A DNA stretch of 26,130 nucleotides from Chlamydiota bacterium. GTDB lineage: Bacteria > Auribacterota > JACPWU01. Location of the stretch: positions 1 to 26,130 of the forward strand of contig JACPWU010000062.1 in the NCBI GenBank assembly GCA_016196885.1, written 5' to 3'. Made by a program: the position numbers and the translations under genes. The notes below the pieces were generated by a model. That model saw nothing but the letters and a program-made list of their open reading frames with translations. It ran no database searches and was not told the origin of the DNA. This document shows positions 372-26,130 of this stretch, piece by piece (position 1 is the stretch's first letter; the number at the start of each line of letters is the position of its first letter).

Positions 372-548
372 GAAACATTCATGCCGACTGAGGTCGGCAC
401 AAAGGGGGATGAAAATCACCCTTGTAGTCGCCCCCTTTATGGGGCGGTCTATGACATTGTGGCATTGGGCATTGCCCGATAAATCGGGCGACTACAAGTC
501 ATCATGAGTCATTGTATAAGAAAGAGTAAAGACTATTTTCAGATGAAA
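372..548 (+). repeat. type-A composite repeat, copy 1 (REPIN-like core 424-495 with 28-nt spacer)
   Basis: Shares its left shell, core and right shell with 20707-20851 and 26017-26130. Core is GTAGTC + GCCCCCTTTATGGGGC + 28 nt + GCCCGATAAATCGGGC + GACTAC. Confidence 0.85.
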
Positions 549-3824: not shown

Positions 3825-3906
3825 AGGCCGTACTTCGTGCTTCGTGCTGCGTACTTCGTTGTTGACAAACAACGAAGCACGAAGTACGCAGCACGAAGCA
3901 CGGCCT
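3825..3906. terminator. 82-nt imperfect palindrome built from ACGAAGY heptads, filling the gap between convergent ahcY and lptG; probable bidirectional terminator/stabiliser
   Basis: Left arm AGGCCGT ACTTCGT GCTTCGT GCTGCGT ACTTCGT TGTT, loop GACA (3864-3867), right arm AACA ACGAAGC ACGAAGT ACGCAGC ACGAAGC ACGGCCT. It spans from 1 nt after the ahcY stop into the lptG stop codon. There is no U-tract. Confidence 0.55.
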
Positions 3907-6301: not shown

Positions 6302-6439
6302 TTTGCTATGAAAGTGAAGCTCATTCTGTAGTCGCCCCATTTATGGGGCTGCCCGATGAATCGGGCGACTACAAAAAAAGCATGATGGGGAGAACTTTCA
6401 TCGCACACGATGATCTCGTAAAGATCATTGAAATTGATA
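6302..6439 (+). repeat. type-B composite repeat, copy 1 (45-nt REPIN-like core 6328-6372)
   Basis: Nearly identical over about 137 nt to 21270-21406. It lies in the divergent lptF/comF intergenic region. Confidence 0.85.
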
Positions 6440-7228: not shown

Positions 7229-7338
7229 ATCAGTCGTGAGTCGTGAGGGGTGAGTCGTGAGTAAAAAAATAATACCTTTAAAACTCACGACTCACGACCG
7301 ACGACTCACAACTGCTTTCAAACTCACGACTCACGACC
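7229..7338. repeat. heptad (GTCGTGA / ACTCACG) inverted-repeat structure with a third, competing arm
   Basis: Left arm is 4 units GTCGTGA GTCGTGA GGGGTGA GTCGTGA (7233-7260). An A/T loop follows. Right arm is ACTCACG ACTCACG ACCGACG ACTCACA (7283-7310). A second right-arm copy, ACTCACG ACTCACG ACC, lies at 7322-7338. Confidence 0.75.
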
Positions 7339-9683: not shown

Positions 9684-9755
9684 ACGTTCAAAAGTTCAAA
9701 GGTGACGCGAAGCGTCATCCTGAGTATCACGAAGGATCTTATCAATAAAGTTTTT

Positions 9756-9893
9756 GGCATATGCACTTGATTCCCCTTAGATAGCAAGCGCCATGGCAAG
9801 AAGTTGTAGTCGCCCCATTCATGGGGCTGTGCCCCTTGCATAGGTTTGCCCGATGAATCGGGCGACTACAAAGGGGAATCAAGTGCATATGCC
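9756..9893 (+). mobile_element. 138-bp MITE with perfect 23-bp TIRs and an 11-bp target-site duplication, carrying a REPIN-like core (9806-9869)
   Basis: The TIRs GGCATATGCACTTGATTCCCCTT (9756-9778) and AAGGGGAATCAAGTGCATATGCC (9871-9893) are exact reverse complements. The direct repeat ATAAAGTTTTT lies at 9745-9755 and 9895-9905. Confidence 0.8.
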
Positions 9894-9910
9894 TATAAAG
9901 TTTTTTACAT

Positions 9911-12700: not shown

Positions 12701-12735
12701 ACAGAAGACAGAATTCAGGAGTCAGAATTCAGCAG
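12701..12735 (+). repeat. heptad array ACAGAAG ACAGAAT TCAGGAG TCAGAAT TCAGCAG
   Basis: Five tandem 7-mers that overlap the stop and last four codons of the HAD gene. A same-orientation sister array lies at 13381-13415. Confidence 0.7.
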
Positions 12736-13372
12736 CTTTAAGTAATTCCAGCGGCTTGTGTATCAATTTTTTTGCTCCACTTGCTATTAATTCCTCAGCA
12801 GTTCTAAATCCCCACAAGGCTCCCACAGGAAACATACCGGCTCGGGAAGCTGTCTCCATGTCAATTTTGGTGTCTCCGAGAAAAATAAAATTTTTTGCGT
12901 CCACTTTCATTTTTGAGGCGATTTGAAGAGCAGAAGAAGGATTGGGCTTTTTCGGCATTTCGTCATGGGCCCCTTGAATGACATCAAATTTCCATTTCCC
13001 TAAAAATTTTCGGACAATGAGTTTCGTGAAATCATCTGGCTTATTGGAGAGAATGGCCGTTTTGATTTTTTTTCTTTCCAATTCATCCAGCAATTCTGAA
13101 ATCCCTGGATAGGGATGCGTTTTCTCGGCCCATCGGTGATGGTATTCTTCCCTCATTTGTTTGACGGTTCTGGAAATCATATCAGATTTTCGGTGAATTT
13201 CGGGAAGGGCACTCCAGGCTAAATATTCCACACCTTCTCCCACAAAATCTTTGTAGCTTTCCGTTGGATGAAGGGGCAAGCCAAAAGATTTTAAAACCGT
13301 GTTCATCGAGTCTGCCAAATCGGCCAAGGTGTCGAGCAGTGTTCCGTCAAGATCGAAGAGAATGGCTTTCAT
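12722..13372 (-). CDS. HAD-superfamily hydrolase (phosphoglycolate phosphatase-like)
   Basis: MKAILFDLDGTLLDT (DxDxT motif I), ILSNK (motif II) and LGDTKIDMETA (motif IV-like). Confidence 0.85.
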   Translation of the reverse strand: MKAILFDLDGTLLDTLADLADSMNTVLKSFGLPLHPTESYKDFVGEGVEYLAWSALPEIHRKSDMISRTVKQMREEYHHRWAEKTHPYPGISELLDELERKKIKTAILSNKPDDFTKLIVRKFLGKWKFDVIQGAHDEMPKKPNPSSALQIASKMKVDAKNFIFLGDTKIDMETASRAGMFPVGALWGFRTAEELIASGAKKLIHKPLELLKAAEF

Positions 13373-13380
13373 ACTTAAAT

Positions 13381-13415
13381 ACAGAATACAGAAGACAGAA
13401 GTCAGAAGACAGAAA
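13381..13415 (+). repeat. heptad array ACAGAAT ACAGAAG ACAGAAG TCAGAAG ACAGAAA
   Basis: Five tandem 7-mers starting 9 nt upstream of the HAD start codon (minus strand), so they occupy the expected RBS region. Confidence 0.7.
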
Positions 13416-15437: not shown

Positions 15438-15812
15438 CTATCTCGCCATTTGTGAAATAAATTTTTCCACCACCCCTTGAATTTCAGGAATGCTGAAAGG
15501 CTTGTTGATAAAATCCTTAGCCCCCATTTTCAGGGCCTGGGCATAAATTCCCCAGTCGCCAAAGGCCGTGATGGGAACGAGCGCTGCTTGGGGGCATTTT
15601 TCTTGGGCGCATTTCATCACTTGAAGCCCGTTTACTTCGGGCATGCTGATATCTGTAAAGATGAGGTTGAAGGGGTTTTTAGAAATAAGATCGAGTGCCT
15701 CTCGACCTCGGGTACAAATCGTGATGGCTCTACCCGCGCTCGTTAAAATGGTGCGGAGAATTTCGGCCTGTTCCGGATCATCATCCACCACCAAAATCTT
15801 AAAGGGGTTCAT
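15438..15812 (-). CDS. stand-alone CheY-like response-regulator receiver protein
   Basis: 124 aa. KILVVDDD, phospho-acceptor context LIFTDISMPEVNG, and a conserved K in FINKPF. Confidence 0.9.
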   Translation of the reverse strand: MNPFKILVVDDDPEQAEILRTILTSAGRAITICTRGREALDLISKNPFNLIFTDISMPEVNGLQVMKCAQEKCPQAALVPITAFGDWGIYAQALKMGAKDFINKPFSIPEIQGVVEKFISQMAR

Positions 15813-16006
15813 GGCAACCTCCCGGGTGCTATTCTAGCATGATTTTGTTTCTTCCCAGTAAAAATTACTATGACTTAAATCATAAAGTTATTTGATAGGT
15901 AATAAATGACCTGGAAAAATGTCTTCAAAAGAGTAGAATGAGCAGACAATAAAAGCAAGTGCTTAAGTGTCTAAGTAAATGGGGAAGAACTTGTTTTCAT
16001 GGATCT

Positions 16007-17485: not shown

Positions 17486-18373
17486 ATGCTCACATCATCA
17501 CGTCTTCCACAATGGATTCGGGTTCAAGCACCGGGTGGGCAAGAGTATCTGGAGACGAGAAAGATTCTTCAGAGGCTTGCCCTTCGCACGGTTTGTCAAG
17601 AGGCTCGCTGTCCCAACATCGGAGAGTGTTTCGATCATGGGACGGCGACATTCATGATTTTGGGAGATGTATGTACACGTGCTTGCGGGTTTTGCCATGT
17701 CACCAAGGGCAAGCCCATGGCCGTGGATCTGGACGAGCCCGAGCGCTTGGCCGAGGCGACGCTTCAGCTTGGGATGAAACATGTCGTCATCACCTCGGTG
17801 GATCGAGATGATTTGTCTGACGGCGGAGCCGGTCATTTTTCAAAAGTCATTCATGCCATTAAGGCCCGCAGTCCTCAAACGGTGGTAGAGGTACTCACCC
17901 CTGATTTTAGAGGCAATCGGGAGGCACTTCAAACGGTGGTGAAGGCGCCCCTACAGGTGTTTAATCATAATTTGGAAACGGTGCCGCGGCTTTACCAGAG
18001 GGCTAGACGCGGCTCGAAATATGAACGCTCTTTGCAAGTTTTAGCTTGGGCGAAAGAAATCAATCCAAATCTTGTGACGAAATCGGGTTTGATGTTGGGC
18101 TTGGGAGAAGAAGACGAAGAACTTTTTTCTGTATTTCAAGATCTGCGAGCAGTGAATTGTGATGTCTTAACCTTGGGACAATATTTAAGGCCGAGCCTCG
18201 ATCAATTGCCTGTCGAGAGATTTGTCGGCCCTGATGAGTTTAAGGTGCTTGCCGAAAAGGCAAGGCGCTTAGGTTTTAGACATGTAGAGGCCGGGCCCCT
18301 GGTGCGCAGTTCTTACCATGCGTGGAAACATTCAGAAACTGTACTTCGTACTTCGGACATCGTAGATCGTTAA
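17486..18373 (+). CDS. lipA: lipoyl synthase
   Basis: CEEARCPNIGECF auxiliary cluster motif and the radical-SAM motif CTRACGFCHV. The last ~10 codons lie in a heptad array. Confidence 0.95.
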   Translation: MLTSSRLPQWIRVQAPGGQEYLETRKILQRLALRTVCQEARCPNIGECFDHGTATFMILGDVCTRACGFCHVTKGKPMAVDLDEPERLAEATLQLGMKHVVITSVDRDDLSDGGAGHFSKVIHAIKARSPQTVVEVLTPDFRGNREALQTVVKAPLQVFNHNLETVPRLYQRARRGSKYERSLQVLAWAKEINPNLVTKSGLMLGLGEEDEELFSVFQDLRAVNCDVLTLGQYLRPSLDQLPVERFVGPDEFKVLAEKARRLGFRHVEAGPLVRSSYHAWKHSETVLRTSDIVDR

Positions 18374-18437
18374 GAAAACCGGTTCGATCTTCTGTTTTTT
18401 CCTAGTTGATGTTCGAAGTTCGATGTACGATGTTCGT
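18341..18437. repeat. ACGAAGT-family heptad inverted repeat downstream of lipA
   Basis: Left arm GTACTTC GTACTTC GGACATC GTAGATC GT (18341-18370, containing the lipA stop). Right arm GATGTTC GAAGTTC GATGTAC GATGTTC GT (18408-18437). The arms are imperfectly complementary. Confidence 0.6.
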
Positions 18438-20344: not shown

Positions 20345-20554
20345 AGTAGGCTGCTGAAAAAGGCCCATCTGACAATGCCTCCCACTTCGCTCCCTTGTGC
20401 GGCGTACCCTAGCCTGGATTTCTCATCACGAGCTCAAAATGCATACAGCTTGTCATCCCCGAGTGTTTTAATCGGGGATCCAAAAACACCTAAAACTCTG
20501 GATTCCCGCTTACCCCACAGGGGCTATTTCGTTGAAACCTGCGGGAATGTCTAT

Positions 20555-20683
20555 GGAAAAGGTGGTCTCCCCAAGTATTTAAACTTGATGAGCTCTGAAC
20601 ACGAAGTGTTCGGCTATTATGAAGGGGAGAAGAATGGTTGACCCAAACGTCATCCAACATAAGAAAAGGAGACCACCTTTTCC
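20555..20683. repeat. 129-nt element closed by a perfect 16-bp inverted repeat (MITE-like or structured RNA)
   Basis: GGAAAAGGTGGTCTCC (20555-20570) and GGAGACCACCTTTTCC (20668-20683). Internal hairpins are CAAGT/ACTTG (20572-20587) and CTGAACAC-GAA-GTGTTCGG (20595-20613). Confidence 0.6.
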
Positions 20684-20706
20684 AATTTACCGACAGGTGA
20701 TGATGA

Positions 20707-20851
20707 GAAACGGCCATGACTTTCAGTCACAAGGGGGGATGAAAATCACCCTTGTAGTCGCCCCATTTATGGGGCTGCCCGATGAATCGGGCGACTACAA
20801 TTCATCATAACTTATTGTATAAGAATGAGTAAAGACTATTTTCAGATGAAA
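20707..20851 (+). repeat. type-A composite repeat, copy 2 (45-nt core 20754-20798)
   Basis: Same shells as 372-548. The left-shell hairpin is replaced by a different hairpin, TGACT-TTC-AGTCA (20717-20729). Confidence 0.85.
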
Positions 20852-21013
20852 TGCGGGCTAGAACGTACGCCTCCGCGGTCGCTCGTGGGCGCGCTTCCCT
20901 CTGGGACCTTTTTGAGCAGCCTGTCAAGATCAAATGTTTCAGCGACTTGATATTTTTTTCTTGATATACTCTCAGAACTATGAAAAAAGCTTGGGAACTG
21001 GAACCTTAAGAAA

Positions 21014-21232
21014 ATGAAAATTTTTGTGAAGGTGAAGCTTCGTGCCAAAGAATGCCGGGTAAAAAAAATAGATGAAAATCATTTTGAGATAGCTGTGAAA
21101 GAGCCTCCGATTGAAGGTAGGGCGAACGTGGCCGTTACAAAGGCGTTGGCGGAATTTTTTGGGAGAGCTCCCTCCAGAGTGAAAATTCTCTCAGGCTTTT
21201 CATCCAGGCAAAAAATTTTTGAAATAGGGTAA
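21014..21232 (+). CDS. DUF167 (YggU-like) family protein
   Basis: 72 aa. KVKLRAKECRV...IAVKEPPIEGRANVAVTKALAEFFG...VKILSGFSSRQKIFEI matches the DUF167 pattern (ApPveGkAN ... G.tSR.K). Confidence 0.8.
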   Translation: MKIFVKVKLRAKECRVKKIDENHFEIAVKEPPIEGRANVAVTKALAEFFGRAPSRVKILSGFSSRQKIFEIG

Positions 21233-21242
21233 CACGGTTTTT

Positions 21243-21263
21243 ACGAAGTACGATGTACGAAGG
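21243..21263 (+). repeat. three ACGAAGT-family heptads (ACGAAGT ACGATGT ACGAAGG)
   Basis: Same unit family as 3825-3906 and 18341-18437. Sits directly upstream of type-B copy 2. Confidence 0.5.
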
Positions 21264-21269
21264 ACGGTT

Positions 21270-21406
21270 TTTGCTATGAAAGTGAAGCTCACTCTGTAGT
21301 CGCCCCATTTATGGGGCTGCCCGATGAATCGGGCGACTACAAAAAAAGCATGATGGGGAGAACTTTCATCGCACACGATGATCTCGAAAGATCATTGAAA
21401 TTAATA
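21270..21406 (+). repeat. type-B composite repeat, copy 2 (45-nt core 21296-21340)
   Basis: Differs from 6302-6439 at three positions that I can see. Its right end overlaps the moeB-like stop codon (21401-21403). Confidence 0.85.
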
Positions 21407-22549
21407 CGTCGCCATGTTGGGATCAATATCAGTGGCCCAGGCATGAATCCCGCCTTTGAGACTTTTCACCTTCTTAAAGCCCATTTCCTTGAGGAATTTC
21501 GCCGCGTTCAGGCTTCTCACCCCGTGATGGCAATGGGTGACGATCTCATCGGCCGTGTCTAGTTCATTCACGCGCTGAGGTAAATCAGCCAAGGGAATCA
21601 AAACGGATTCTTCCAGATGGCAGATGTCATATTCGTGAGGCTCACGGACATCTACGACAACCACCTTTTTCTTGCTGTCGAGCGTTTTCTTGAGTTCCCG
21701 AGCTGTGATTTCTAGGTCAGAGGCCTCTTTCTGGGTTTCTTCTTGGCCGCGGCCGATTCCACAAAATTCCTCGTAATCAATGAGGCTTGTGAGGGTTGGA
21801 TGATCTGAGCAGATGGGGCAATTCGGGTCTTTCCGGAGCTTCAGCTCCCGAATCTTCATTTCAAGGGCGCTGATAATCAGAAGACGGCCGATCAAGGGTT
21901 CCCCTTGGCCCAAAATAAGTTTAATTGTCTCCGTCGCTTGAATGCAGCCGACAAGGCCTGGAAGAATGCCAAGGACTCCGCCTTCGGCGCAACTGGGCAC
22001 CATCCCGGGAGGAGGAGGCTCTGGATAAAGGCAACGGTAGCAGGGGCCCCGTTCGGCGGCAAAGACAGAGGACTGGCCTTCAAAGCGGAAAATGCTGCCA
22101 TAGACATTGGGCTTTTTCAAGAGGACGCAGGCATCGTTGACCAAATAGCGCGTGGCAAAATTGTCTGTGCCGTCCACCACAATGTCGTAGGGTTCGATCC
22201 ATTGGATGGCGTTGTCAGAAGAAAGTCGCTCTTTATAAATTTCTACATCAATGCTGGAGTTGAGCGAGAGAAGTCTCTCTTTGGCCGATTCAGCCTTAGA
22301 CTCTCCGATCTTGGCTTCACTGTGAATGATTTGGCGCTGGAGATTTGAAAAATCCACCACGTCAAAATCCACAATACCCAAATGGCCCACGCCGGCGGCC
22401 GCCAGATAAAGGGCCAGCGGAGAGCCAAGGCCTCCAGCTCCGATGCAAAGGACCCTTGCGTTACAAAGCTTCTCTTGACCCTCAATGCCCACTTCGGGCA
22501 TGATCAAATGACGGCTGTATCTTGCGATCTGATCTTTGCTTAATGGCAT
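21401..22549 (-). CDS. moeB: MoeB/ThiF-family adenylyltransferase with C-terminal rhodanese domain (MoeZ/MoeBR type)
   Basis: YSRHLIMPEVGIEGQEKL, the nucleotide loop CIGAGGLGSPLALYLAAAGVG, zinc-binding CYRC...CPIC pairs, and a rhodanese active-site loop HCHHGVRS. Confidence 0.9.
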   Translation of the reverse strand: MPLSKDQIARYSRHLIMPEVGIEGQEKLCNARVLCIGAGGLGSPLALYLAAAGVGHLGIVDFDVVDFSNLQRQIIHSEAKIGESKAESAKERLLSLNSSIDVEIYKERLSSDNAIQWIEPYDIVVDGTDNFATRYLVNDACVLLKKPNVYGSIFRFEGQSSVFAAERGPCYRCLYPEPPPPGMVPSCAEGGVLGILPGLVGCIQATETIKLILGQGEPLIGRLLIISALEMKIRELKLRKDPNCPICSDHPTLTSLIDYEEFCGIGRGQEETQKEASDLEITARELKKTLDSKKKVVVVDVREPHEYDICHLEESVLIPLADLPQRVNELDTADEIVTHCHHGVRSLNAAKFLKEMGFKKVKSLKGGIHAWATDIDPNMATY

Positions 22550-22671
22550 AAATCACTCCTAAAATTTTGACTGTAGCAAAAGCGGTTTTCCACGTCACAT
22601 CGTCATTTAGGGTGATTTTATAGCGTTCTTGAGTAAAATTAGCAAGGATTTTGAGATGGATGTAGGGAAAA

Positions 22672-23631
22672 ATGATTCCACACAGAATTTTAGGTAAAAC
22701 AGCACTTAGCATCTCCGAACTGGGTTTCGGAAGTTGGCCCATCGGGGGAGGGAGTTATGGGCCTGTGGAGGATGTTCAGTCTCTTGAAGCCTTGCGAGAA
22801 GCGATGGCTCACGGTGTCAATTTTATAGACACGGCCGATATTTATGGAAAGGGTCATAGCGAGTCTTTGATTGGAGAAGTTGTTGAGGGAAGGGATGATG
22901 TTTTTCTGGCGACAAAGGCAGGATGGGATTTCAGCCATGGGCTCGTTCGAGCCAATTTTGATGTGAGTTATCTAGCGTTTGCTTTGGAGGAGAGTCTTCA
23001 GCGTTTGAAGAGAAATTCAGTCTCCCTTTTTCAATTGCATAATCCGCCGGTTGAATTGACCCAGAATAAGTTCTTATTAGAGTCACTTAGGAAGTGGAAA
23101 GAGAAAGGCAAGATTGATTTTTACGGCGTTTCTGTTCACGGACCCGAAGAGGGAAAAATATGGATTGAAAATACCGATGTTCAAGTGATTCAAATTGTTT
23201 TTAATCTTTTGGATCAAAGACCGCTCAGAGATTTCTTTGGCTTGGTGCGGGAGAGGGGAGTGGGGATCATTGCTCGGGAGCCTTTGGCTTGTGGGATGCT
23301 GACGGAGAAATATTCTAAGGATGTGGTATTTCCCAAAAATGATCATCGCCGTCGCTGGCCTAAAGAAAAGATGGAGCTGGATTTAGAGAAAATACGGCGC
23401 ATTCGGTCTTGGGTGGGTCTTGAAGACATTCCTCTTTCTCAATTGGCATTAGAATTTGTGCTTTCCTTCCGGGAGGTTTCTATCGTGATTCCAGGGATGA
23501 AGACGCCTCATCAGGTCCGGTCCAATTTAAAGGCGTGTGAAGAAAAACATTTGAATCCAGAATTGATTCAGAAGATTTGCAAGCTTTATCGAGAGGATGA
23601 GATTTTTTCCAGAGGGCTTTATCGGAATTGA
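22672..23631 (+). CDS. aldo/keto reductase family oxidoreductase
   Basis: LGFGSW..GG, NFIDTADIYGKGHSE, the HNPP motif region, and IPGMKTPHQV near the C-terminus. Confidence 0.9.
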   Translation: MIPHRILGKTALSISELGFGSWPIGGGSYGPVEDVQSLEALREAMAHGVNFIDTADIYGKGHSESLIGEVVEGRDDVFLATKAGWDFSHGLVRANFDVSYLAFALEESLQRLKRNSVSLFQLHNPPVELTQNKFLLESLRKWKEKGKIDFYGVSVHGPEEGKIWIENTDVQVIQIVFNLLDQRPLRDFFGLVRERGVGIIAREPLACGMLTEKYSKDVVFPKNDHRRRWPKEKMELDLEKIRRIRSWVGLEDIPLSQLALEFVLSFREVSIVIPGMKTPHQVRSNLKACEEKHLNPELIQKICKLYREDEIFSRGLYRN

Positions 23632-23687
23632 GGCTTTGCTGGCGGGGGTTTTTGATTTATAATCTTGGCTTAATAAAGGGAGGGGAT

Positions 23688-24218
23688 ATGAAAAAATTTC
23701 AGGTGATGATTGGAGTCATGGGAATATTTTTTGGGGTTTTAGGGATGTCTTATTCACGAGAGGTGAAAAAAGCGATGGCCGTTTTAAATCCAACCCAGGG
23801 AAATCAAGTTCAAGGGACGATCTCCTTTATGGCTGTGGAGGAGGGGGTTCAGGTGATCGCGGACGTAGATCGCCTAACGCCTGGGAGGCATGGGTTTCAT
23901 ATTCATGAAAAAGGGGATTGCAGTGCGCCCGATGGTTCTTCGGCCGGGGGACATTTTAATCCTCACGCCATGTCTCATGGAGGGCCTATGGACGCGATGC
24001 GCCATGATGGGGACATGGGAAATATTGTTGCGGATGAAAAGGGGCATGCCCATTTGGATTATGTGGATTCGAAAATGACTTTGAGCGGGGAAAATTCTAT
24101 TGTTGGGCGGGGGGTGATTCTCCATGCCCAGGAAGACGATTTCAAAACTCAACCGACAGGAAATGCAGGGGCCCGTGTGGCGTGTGGAGAGATTGAGGCA
24201 GTTGAAGAGAGTAGATGA
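23688..24218 (+). CDS. sodC: periplasmic Cu/Zn superoxide dismutase
   Basis: AAGGGAGGGG precedes ATG 23688. Signal peptide is present, followed by HGFHIHEKGDCS, GGHFNP, HDGDMGN and GNAGARVACGEI motifs. Confidence 0.9.
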   Translation: MKKFQVMIGVMGIFFGVLGMSYSREVKKAMAVLNPTQGNQVQGTISFMAVEEGVQVIADVDRLTPGRHGFHIHEKGDCSAPDGSSAGGHFNPHAMSHGGPMDAMRHDGDMGNIVADEKGHAHLDYVDSKMTLSGENSIVGRGVILHAQEDDFKTQPTGNAGARVACGEIEAVEESR

Positions 24219-24901
24219 AAAAAGGTTTTTTCGTTACAGGGACAGACACAGGCGTGGGCAAGACCCTTGTGAGTTGTGTCTTGGCAAGGATTTTAGGCCG
24301 TTGGGGTTCTGTGGGCGTGATGAAGCCCTTTGCCTCGGGGAACCGCCAGGATGCCTTGCGACTCCAGGGGGCTGCCCGAAGAGATGATTTAACCTTGGAT
24401 GAGGTTAATCCGATTTATTTTAAGGAACCTCTGGCCCCTTACAGCGCCAGGGGTTTTGGGAAAAAGGCGATTGATTTAAAAAAGGTTCTGAAGTCCTATC
24501 AGAGGATTTCGGCCTCTTCTGATTTTATGATTGTGGAAGGGATCGGCGGACTTCATGTGCCTTTAAGCGGGGTTTTAGATGTTGCGGATCTGGTGTTGAA
24601 ATTAAATTTGCCTCTTTTGATTGTGACGCACTTACGGCTGGGAACACTCAATCATACCTTGCTCACAGTGGATTATGCTCGTCAAAAAGGTCTTCAAATC
24701 AAGGGCCTCATTTTTTGCGAGTCGAGAGTGGCAAAGGATTGGGCTTCGAAAACAAATCCGCAAGCGCTGCAGCGGTTAACGCAGCTTCCCCTTTTAGGAC
24801 ATATTCCCTGTTTAAAAGGTCGTTTTGGAGAGAAGGTTGAGAAGGCTGTGAGAGAGAATTTTATTTCTTTGAAATGGCTTAGAAAGTGGGATGTAGAATG
24901 A
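24215..24901 (+). CDS. bioD: ATP-dependent dethiobiotin synthetase
   Basis: FFVTGTDTGVGKT P-loop, VEGIGG, and the LNHTLLT region. Its ATG overlaps the sodC TGA (ATGA). Confidence 0.9.
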   Translation: MKKGFFVTGTDTGVGKTLVSCVLARILGRWGSVGVMKPFASGNRQDALRLQGAARRDDLTLDEVNPIYFKEPLAPYSARGFGKKAIDLKKVLKSYQRISASSDFMIVEGIGGLHVPLSGVLDVADLVLKLNLPLLIVTHLRLGTLNHTLLTVDYARQKGLQIKGLIFCESRVAKDWASKTNPQALQRLTQLPLLGHIPCLKGRFGEKVEKAVRENFISLKWLRKWDVE

Positions 24902-25905
24902 AATCTATTTTAGGATCTTATTTGATTTCCATTTTGGGTTTACTTTTTTTATGGGGCCTGGTGTTGGATTTTATTTTTCTTGCCAAAAGAAAGTATGCGG
25001 CCGAAAAGGTAGGTGTGGGGGATGCCTTCTGGGGCTGGAGAGACGCGGCCGCAGTCGTTCTCTTTTTTGTTCTCTTTGAGTTTGTCTTGGAAGGGATGAG
25101 TCATTTTATTTTTAAGACTTTTGTGATTTCACCTCAAGAGAGAGGACGGATCGCTTTTTTTGCAAATTCTGGGCTGGAGGTTGCGACGGTCCTTTTCTTG
25201 TGCTTCCTTCTGGGCCGACGCTATGGTTTAAAGTGGAAAACATTGGGGTTGGCCCTCATTTCTCATCACATTTCTGCTACGAGCGCCGATTCCGCCTCGT
25301 CTCTCCGTGCAGACTCGGTCGGCCACGCTCAACATGCTGTAAAGTATGCCTCACATGGCCTCGGTCGTCTTCCTCGCATCCAAAGGCGGACTCAGGCGTT
25401 CCTCGCGACGAAATCTGATGAGAAATGCGGGCTAGAGAAACCCTTTTCTTTTTCAACGGCAAAGGAAGGAGTGCTGGCTTATTGCGGCGCTCTTCCTCCT
25501 TTGGTGGGGGTAGGACTCGCGACCCAGTTTTTAGGCCGAATCTGGAAAATTCCTTTAAAGCCTCAGGTTCCGCTTCAGATTTTACAGGGGGAGACCTCGA
25601 TAGCAGCTTGGGCGGTGATGGGTTTTGTGATTGTTATTTTGGTTCCTTTCTTAGAAGAGATTTTTTTTCGTGGTTTTCTTTATGCCCTCTTGAGAAAGTC
25701 CTTTGGGATGGGGAAGGCGATGGTTTTAAATTCTCTTCTTTTTTCAAGTTTACATTTTAGTTTTTTGGCCTTTCTTCCCATTTTTTGCATTGGTTTATTC
25801 TTGGCTTATCTTTATGAAAAGACGGGATCTCTTTTTGCGCCAATGGTTTTTCATGCGTTGAATAATACCGTGGCCGTTTTGCTGGTGGTGTTTTTAATGA
25901 AATGA
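24898..25905 (+). CDS. CPBP-family (CAAX-type) intramembrane metalloprotease carrying an internal palindromic insertion
   Basis: Motif 1 EEIFFRGFLY, motif 2 FSSLHF and motif 3 FHALNN are all present in the C-terminal half. ATG 24898 overlaps the bioD TGA. The ORF opens at GTG 24886. Confidence 0.85.
   Translation: MKSILGSYLISILGLLFLWGLVLDFIFLAKRKYAAEKVGVGDAFWGWRDAAAVVLFFVLFEFVLEGMSHFIFKTFVISPQERGRIAFFANSGLEVATVLFLCFLLGRRYGLKWKTLGLALISHHISATSADSASSLRADSVGHAQHAVKYASHGLGRLPRIQRRTQAFLATKSDEKCGLEKPFSFSTAKEGVLAYCGALPPLVGVGLATQFLGRIWKIPLKPQVPLQILQGETSIAAWAVMGFVIVILVPFLEEIFFRGFLYALLRKSFGMGKAMVLNSLLFSSLHFSFLAFLPIFCIGLFLAYLYEKTGSLFAPMVFHALNNTVAVLLVVFLMK
25258..25426. repeat. 169-nt imperfect palindrome inside the CPBP ORF, read through in frame
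   Basis: Arms 25258-25323 and 25361-25426. The terminal 17 nt match 16/17 in inverted orientation (ATTTCTCATCACATTTC vs ATTTCTCATCAGATTTC). Matching blocks CGAG, CGCC, GA.TCCGCCT and GGCC follow. Confidence 0.65.
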
Positions 25906-26016
25906 AAAGAATAATGAAATAACTCCCCCAACCCCAGCAAGGGAGGCTGCACTGCTAGTCTCAGTACAAAGCCGACTGCGGTAGTAGATGTTTTTTTACG
26001 TCTGTCCTCTTGTTAT

Positions 26017-26130
26017 GAAACATTCATGCCGACTGAGGTCGGCACAAAGGGGGATGAAAATCACCCTTGTAGTCGCCCCATTTATGGGGCCGTTGCATGG
26101 ACTGCCCGATGAATCGGGCGACTACAAGTC
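26017..26130 (+). repeat. type-A composite repeat, copy 3 (core 26069-26125, 13-nt spacer), truncated by the window end
   Basis: The left shell is identical to copy 1 from GAAACATTCATGCCGACTGAGGTCGGCAC through GTAGTC. Confidence 0.85.

Follow-up and report, generated by a model that had tools for sequence, protein, structure and literature searches.

The DNA analyzed here (the window) spans an entire 26,130-bp contig of a Chlamydiae MAG, and it raises the question of what kind of element places the same core sequence, wrapped in a hairpin-bearing shell, at several sites of one genome. An earlier note, made from the sequence alone, had described three such composite copies (type A), and had proposed that their hairpins are under selection as folded RNA or single-stranded DNA (ssDNA) and that their right shells carry an outward-facing promoter. 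When the sequence was re-read, all coordinates and strings given for the type-A motifs were correct, and alignment confirmed that the three copies are real; what had been missed is that the core consists of GTAG-tagged repetitive extragenic palindromes (REPs), which makes the element a member of an already known DNA repeat family. The shared core and shell are explained by this known kind of small bacterial repeat, and the element as a whole is probably a composite REP element of the BIME or REPIN kind, in which a hairpin-rich accessory block and a REP pair were inserted as one unit. Membership in the REP family rests on anatomy, covariation and insertion polymorphism.

A repeat scan and a six-way alignment placed six plus-oriented copies of the ~45-nt core in the window (near 424, 6328, 9806, 20754, 21296 and 26069), of which three have type-A flanks, two have flanks of a second type (B) and one has flanks of a third type (C). 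Each REP unit comprises GTAG, two bases, a perfect 7-bp stem and a 2-nt centre. The Y unit reads GTAGTC-GCCCCAT-TT-ATGGGGC and the Z unit, on the opposite strand, reads GTAGTC-GCCCGAT-TC-ATCGGGC; the two differ by one compensatory change from a C-G to a G-C pair and by one loop base, and they are inverted within the core with the GTAG tags outermost. A seventh pair (c7) lies ~45 nt downstream of c3, ~90 nt past the end of the window (26222-26266 in the extended numbering; locus L086, 5264-5308), and carries the 45-nt core of c2, c4 and c6 in exact reverse complement, in a B-like shell. The 14 units of these seven pairs fit GTAGTC followed by two 7-nt arms of a stem around 2 nt, with the exception of the Y unit of c1, which has one loop-proximal change. 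The linker between Y and Z measures 1 nt in c2, c4, c6 and c7, 13 nt in c3, 20 nt in c5 and 28 nt in c1. All seven pairs in ~42 kb of the MAG are intergenic, with called or Pfam-supported genes on both sides, and they cluster within ~26 kb; no further REP unit or shell was found in the adjoining 15.7 kb, which were added from the 102-kb contig of GCA_016178005.1.

The core is an inverted REP pair with the head-head heterodimer layout of BIMEs and REPINs. It agrees with the published definition of REPs and BIMEs, a palindrome of 20-50 nt behind a conserved GTAG, and in particular with group-3 REPs, which are short and perfectly palindromic (Corneloup et al. 2021, PMC8266576). It also agrees with the GTAG repeats described as 'HH heterodimers' by Di Nocera et al. 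(2013, PMC3733652), who report REP dimers inside longer conserved sequence as well (section 7 of that paper) and already list GTAG repeats for the Planctomycetes-Verrucomicrobia-Chlamydiae superphylum.

The positions of the composite units, and of the parts of the first type-A copy, are collected in Table 1. The type-A shell totals ~105 nt, is lineage-specific and was found only with a REP pair in the searched loci and collections. Its left arm of 47-52 nt consists of GAAAC (starting at 372 in c1 and 20707 in c2) and two hairpins, H1 and H2, and its right arm of 53 nt is closed by TCATC...GATGA. Copy c1 is flanked by an ORF ending at 264 and by the NTase-MetK gene, whose start is at 601, and c2 lies in a 1.15-kb gap with the fumarase and DUF167 genes on either side. 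The full c3, which the end of the window cuts, is seen in an overlapping contig (loci L081 and L086) of MAG GCA_016178005.1 (JACOUD010000018.1), which is 100% identical to the last 5.46 kb of the window (20668-26130) and continues beyond it. The left shell is the same in c1 and c3 at 52/52 positions, the right shells of c2 and c3 match at 47/53, and the sole difference between the right shells of c1 and c3 is a change of CAGATGAAA to CAGGTGAAA in c3. With nhmmer profile E-values of 1e-10 to 1e-18 for the three copies, similarity among them far exceeds chance. Searches of ~42 kb of the MAG, of 43 kb from a relative, and of the genome, metagenome and viral collections yielded no additional type-A copy: exact-pattern scans gave 0 matches in genome_contigs (shell-core junction), metagenome_contigs (left shell) and viral_contigs (left and right shells), and shell BLAST searches and nhmmer profiles against all 86 loci returned only the known three.

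Table 1. Composite units in the window and the parts of type-A copy c1.
Feature	Position	Strand	Basis or detail
Type-A composite unit c1 (left shell, REP pair, right shell)	372..548	+	three-copy alignment
Left-shell hairpin H1 of c1, T-GCCGAC TGAG GTCGGC-A, 7 bp	382..399	+	DNA fold
Left-shell hairpin H2 of c1, AAGGGGGAT GAAA ATCACCCTT	402..423	+	DNA fold and alignment
REP unit Y of c1, GTAG TC GCCCCC TTTA TGGGGC	424..445	+	GTAG tag, then palindrome
Linker between REP units of c1, 28 nt, with period-7 duplication	446..473	+	alignment
REP unit Z of c1, inverted, GTAG TC GCCCGAT TT ATCGGGC	474..495	-	tag and palindrome
Right shell of c1, including proposed TTGTAT (512-517) and TATTTT (534-539)	496..548	+	48/53 vs c2, 52/53 vs c3
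Type-A copy c2	20707..20851	+	H1 variant 20717-20729, REP Y 20754-20775, REP Z 20777-20798, right shell 20799-20851
Type-A copy c3, cut by window end	26017..26130	+	H1 26028-26043, REP Y 26069-26090, REP Z 26104-26125
Type-B composite unit c4	6302..6435	+	core 6328-6372, identical to 45-nt c2 core
Type-B composite unit c6	21270..21402	+	core 21296-21340; between convergent DUF167 and MoeB genes
Type-C composite unit c5	9744..9905	+	35-nt inverted repeat around REP pair 9806-9869; z -9.7

Analysis of other genomes shows that the REP unit is widely distributed. The Z unit, as the 22-mer GCCCGATRAATCGGGCGACTAC, occurs in at least 51 stretches of a species-representative genome collection; among the matches listed, it is found mainly in Stahlbacteria and WOR-3 MAGs, also in MAGs labelled Zixibacteria, Poribacteria (complete chromosomes), Nitrospirae, Planctomycetota, Elusimicrobiota, Proteobacteria and Actinomycetota, and nearly always with an inverted partner, for example GTAGTT-GTCTGAT-TT-ATCAGAC. 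The Y unit is present in 24 metagenome contigs, in Y-linker-Z pairs with linkers of 3 to ~60 nt, while viral_contigs held no match to the REP unit. When the tag, the closing G-C pair and the AT/AT pairs were held fixed and four stem pairs were left free, 175 units, 44 of them distinct, matched this pattern in 568 kb. Among the 44 distinct units, 95.8% of cells fall in standard pairs (23-40% in slid controls) and double-sided changes number 53, as opposed to 15.6 +/- 3.1 in shuffles; none of 500 shuffles reached the observed covariation score. Therefore, the check for covariation on an alignment, which the earlier note had recommended, succeeds for the core REP stem, and covariation of this strength indicates that the hairpin is under real structural constraint. 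REPs have been reported to be mostly lineage-specific and vertically inherited, so the sharing of near-identical 22-nt units of this class across MAGs of at least 8 phyla is unusual for REPs and counts against the assignment. In Stahlbacteria and related genomes (loci L023, L006, L009, L026, L041, L038 and L022), an extra hairpin of 20-45 nt often sits within the left REP unit GATTTATC, splitting its loop, and the loop sequence is sometimes duplicated on either side of the extra hairpin, which suggests nested insertions into REP loops.

Comparison with a related MAG, GCA_016178055.1, which is syntenic over most of the window and has NTase-MetK and MoeB proteins that are 87% and 85% identical to those encoded here, reveals an insertion polymorphism. 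The gap between the PGK and TIM genes that holds c5 measures 227 nt in the window and 16 nt in the relative, the fumarase-DUF167 gap that holds c2 measures 1,152 nt and 49 nt, respectively, and the relative has no homologue of the type-B unit at the sites of c4 (LptG-ComF) and c6 (DUF167-MoeB). Thus the orthologous sites of c2, c4, c5 and c6 are empty, with neither core nor shell. The relative has a single pair of its own, placed in the opposite orientation between the GAPDH and PGK genes, which overlap in the window; behind this pair comes a flank with homology to the left shell of type C (CATATGCACTTGATTCC plus ~27 nt). The occupied sites differ between the two related genomes, and since shell and core are both missing at orthologous sites, they appear to have been gained together at new ones. 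One candidate explanation of the c1 site, a break in a histidine-kinase gene whose ortholog lies beside the HAD gene of the relative, was ruled out because the two proteins have no similarity.

The same repeats mark the ends of assembled sequences. Logan contigs of this organism end at 519, in the right shell of c1, and at ~21377, in the shell of c6; one NCBI contig starts 39 nt before c2 and another ends inside c3. In all, four independent assemblies break at or beside REP repeats, so these repeats fragment assemblies of the organism, as fits multi-copy sequences, and they account for its assembly breaks at these positions. Chimerism of the assembly across repeats was considered and is unlikely, because the join at c2 matches the fumarase-DUF167-MoeB synteny of the relative and the linkers of c1 and c3 are distinct.

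The relationship between core and shell bears on which part of the unit is mobilized. The type-B units c4 and c6 are 98.5% identical over 134 nt, and the left and right arms of types B (z -3.1) and C (z -9.7) pair with each other, whereas pairing of the type-A arms is at the level of shuffles (duplex z 0.1, -0.4 and 0.3). In addition, the two ends of type A, GAAAC... and ...TGAAA, are not inverted copies of each other, and no duplication is seen in its flanks, so the terminal inverted repeats and target-site duplication that define a MITE are both missing from type A. The lack of these features, and of left-right complementarity, counts against a ~105-nt block having been carried along with the REP pair. 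An identical 45-nt core sits in shell A at c2 and in shell B at c4 and c6, and it is flipped in c7, while c1 and c3, whose A shells are nearly identical, have cores that differ in linker length (28 nt in c1, 13 nt in c3) and at two bases. Core and shell therefore assort independently, a pattern that would fit independent insertion of the core, or gene conversion, equally as well as co-mobilization.

These observations also suit a different proposal, in which the shell is a pre-existing, independent repeat that serves as a preferred target of the 45-nt REP pair, so that three A copies were hit separately at the same position. Precedent exists for REP dimers in target palindromes, with free targets in T. 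roseum (PMC3733652). A free type-A target would read CACCCTT followed directly by AAGTCATC at the junction, but no core-less shell turned up in 42 kb of the MAG, 43 kb of the relative or any of the collections, and wherever an orthologous site of the relative could be compared, shell and core are both missing from it. We consider this proposal unlikely.

A bolder version of joint insertion is that the A, B and C units form a distinct class of composite, non-autonomous elements, in which a near-universal REP pair is a swappable and flippable mobilization cassette, the accessory hairpins are selected for mobilization or gene control, and the identity of units across phyla points to a horizontally travelling RAYT or a conserved host factor; we regard this version as quite unlikely. 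What is less ordinary about the system is that the unit is nearly identical across phyla and that the shells are modular and assort independently. Orientation is also biased, with 7/7 shells and 6/7 cores facing one way, in a window with a plus-strand GC skew of +0.13 throughout; this bias would fit a strand-specific ssDNA mechanism of the IS200/IS605 or TnpA-REP type (PMC8266576), or equally a bias in the direction of transcription. By eye, a short repeat, TTACCCCA(C)(A/G)GGGGCTATTTCGTTGA, was noted ~190 nt upstream of c2 (window 20511-20545) and ~150 nt downstream of c7 (extended ~26395-26425).

The difference in the left-shell hairpin that raised the question of a folded RNA is real: c1 (383-398) and c3 have GCCGAC-TGAG-GTCGGC in the slot where c2 has TGACT-TTC-AGTCA. 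In c1, and identically in c3, H1 has 7 bp (-8.5 kcal/mol as DNA, z -5.7), and in c2 the same slot holds 5 bp (-2.7 kcal/mol as DNA). Chance alone gives a perfect stem of at least 5 bp in 3% of random 18-nt slots, and such a stem is present in 5.7% of real 22-nt windows of the contig; the coincidence in c2 is suggestive, in a comparison of two variants. The two versions had been called unrelated; they do differ in sequence, but they can be aligned as TG-CCG-AC TGAG GT-CGG-CA (c1 and c3) and TG-AC TTTCA GT-CA (c2), and because H1 of c2 can then be read as one palindrome symmetrically shortened by 3 bp, their unrelatedness is not established. A common origin of both versions can likewise be read from this alignment, in which the shared AC...GT is too short to serve as proof. 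The mini-hairpin GAT-GAAA-ATC (408-417) is present, but as the tip of a longer 9-bp stem with one G/A mismatch (H2; -6.4 kcal/mol as DNA, z -3.7), which is alike in the three type-A copies apart from one extra G in c2. The alternative pairing, in which TGAAAAT (410-416) and ATTTTCA (535-541) would enclose the core, was built on correct strings, yet it is no better than shuffles (duplex z ~0).

Structure is kept while sequence changes in the REP stem, in the swap between Y and Z, and in a type-B right-shell hairpin, where CGATGATCT/AGATCATTG becomes CGATGACCC/GGGTCATTG in c7 through two changes from T-A to C-G pairs; for the H1 slot of c2, where the earlier note had placed this idea, it remains suggestive. 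As to selection on folded RNA or ssDNA, the complementarity that it would preserve is indeed kept, but RNA is not required, and an explanation at the level of DNA is at least as likely. Self-correction of quasi-palindromes by template switching also maintains the complementarity of hairpins. Since upkeep of hairpins is expected for an ssDNA substrate or through such correction, a functional RNA is not needed to account for it.

A structured RNA encoded by type A, be it a small RNA or a cis-acting leader, in which selection on the RNA fold would maintain the hairpins, would nevertheless be consistent with several features: whole units fold far more stably than shuffles (z -4.7 to -6.0), a hairpin occupies the same slot despite its changed sequence, the three copies are oriented like their flanking genes, and an A-to-G change in c3 retains a G-U pair in the closing TCATC/GATGA stem. 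However, most of this stability derives from the REP palindrome, and the fold is equally good as DNA. Only two sequence variants are available, the inner right-shell hairpin of c2 (CTTAT-TGT-ATAAG) is missing from c1 and c3, and the units are insertion-polymorphic repeats beside unrelated genes. A search of the window with Rfam 15 at gathering thresholds was null, region 300-620, searched at E up to 10, gave only chance-level scores (E 0.1 to 9), and no SAM or SAH riboswitch was found with Rfam upstream of the metK-ahcY genes. An RNA with this role is thus very unlikely.

The outward promoter that had been proposed in the right shell (TTGTAT, 16 nt, TATTTT) does not stand out from its surroundings. 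All three type-A copies preserve the pair, which aims at a plus-strand gene 52, 163 and ~270 nt away; its conservation is expected simply from the copying of type-A units, though, and in c3 it points into another REP pair ahead of any gene. It matches only 7/12 consensus positions, too few to be reported at the threshold of a consensus scan, and sites of equal quality occur 542 times in the window (267 on the plus and 275 on the minus strand), or ~10 per kb per strand, so that the pair falls short of a sigma-70-type promoter, whose near-consensus hexamers at 16-18 nt spacing would be rarer than chance. That these hexamers drive the downstream gene is highly improbable. Least credible of all, and barely worth entertaining, is a protein of 23-32 aa (MKITLVVAPFMG...LPDxSGDYxSS) that would start at an ATG in the H2 loop: its frame (409-507, 20739-20810 and 26054 to the end; 32, 23 and 27 codons) has start and stop positions common to the three copies and is preserved across linker differences of 12 and 27 nt, but the chance that both indels keep frame is ~1 in 9 and this conservation is probably coincidence, the ATG lies within a hairpin loop directly at a GGGGG run without Shine-Dalgarno spacing, the peptide is a mere translation of REP palindromes, and in type B the frame of the equivalent ATGAAA is closed by the TAG of GTAG after 7 codons. 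Because core and shells are explained as REP-type repeats, they should not be pursued as new RNA genes or promoters.

The composite REP element can be compared with several known systems. It shares with GTAG REPs and BIMEs a GTAG tag and a short perfect palindrome, the inverted arrangement with tags outside, a variable linker, partners that differ in stem and loop, and an intergenic distribution in multiple copies, here seven pairs in ~42 kb (PMC3733652, PMC8266576). In A. variabilis, GTAG dimers are likewise embedded in longer conserved sequence, namely TGAAA--TTTCA palindromes (PMC3733652). In contrast, the host is here an uncultured Chlamydiae MAG, the type-A shell is asymmetric rather than palindromic, with two small left hairpins and a ~53-nt right arm, the unit is almost unchanged across at least 8 phyla, and no cognate transposase was seen in the fetched loci. 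As in the REPIN-RAYT system (Bertels and Rainey 2011, PMC3116915), inverted REPs form a long hairpin in a small, non-autonomous repeat whose occupied sites vary between related genomes, but classic REPINs have a conserved ~70-nt spacer between REPs, whereas here the spacer is as short as 1 nt, with the additional conserved sequence located on the outer sides of the pair, and linkage to a RAYT is putative. MITEs and palindrome-associated elements derived from IS200/IS605 resemble these units in their size (145-177 nt here), intergenic position, presence/absence polymorphism and richness in hairpins, but differ from type A in the terminal inverted repeats and target-site duplication noted above.

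By analogy with studied REPs, a possible model of mobilization is as follows. The lineage would carry a few families of accessory blocks, type A being one, each of which occurs only with a REP pair, and block and pair would enter intergenic sites together. A RAYT (TnpA-REP), which is an HUH tyrosine transposase, would recognize GTAG and the stem, bind and cut the ssDNA hairpin, and thereby copy REP units into new intergenic sites. Hairpin complementarity would be kept through the need for an ssDNA substrate, or through template-switch self-correction of quasi-palindromes, and REP hairpins in transcripts might act at most as passive 3'-end or stability elements; any influence on neighboring genes is likewise one that we infer.

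No cognate RAYT was found in 42 kb of the MAG, nor did any of the fetched loci have one next to REPs of this class, and the ORFs that this class brackets encode an isochorismatase, a ParA-like ATPase and two proteins without a Pfam match, with no transposase among them. The sole Y1_Tnp in the fetched DNA (PF01797, E 4.8e-10) is an IS200-like/RAYT protein in a Stahlbacteria locus (L006, 1503-2048, minus strand), where it is flanked by inverted GTAG REPs of a second class, GGAGTAGGGCGTTTACGCCC, at 1438-1492 and 2061-2125; the genome of this locus also holds a Z unit of the GCCCGAT type. A phmmer search of all locus ORFs with this protein and an approximate E. coli RayT sequence returned only the L006 protein itself.

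The presence of GTAG REPs of one sequence family is hereby documented in an uncultured Chlamydiae lineage and in many candidate phyla. In addition, two related genomes with different occupied sites provide a natural system for defining the mobilized unit of a REP pair.

Two other features of this DNA were observed. One is a set of long intergenic hairpins built from tandem heptamers, which occur in the window at 3829-3902, 7232-7313, 12709-12732 with 13381-13414, 18341-18436 and 21242-21266, and in locus L078 at 13240-13345 and 15690-15830. For example, (CGTACTT)x4 faces (ACGAAGC)x4 between convergent AdoHcyase and LptF genes, and the orthologous gap of the relative has the same hairpin architecture with a different heptamer (CGGATTG / CAATCCG). 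We take these tandem heptamers to resemble the STRR heptamer repeats of cyanobacteria. REP pairs of Stahlbacteria are flanked by heptamers of the GTAGGGA/GTAAGGC type. The other feature is the gene at 601-2550, which encodes an NTP_transferase domain fused to a complete S-adenosylmethionine synthetase; among the best 120 matches in a collection of 5.8 billion proteins, this architecture is found only in the window protein and its 87%-identical counterpart in the relative.
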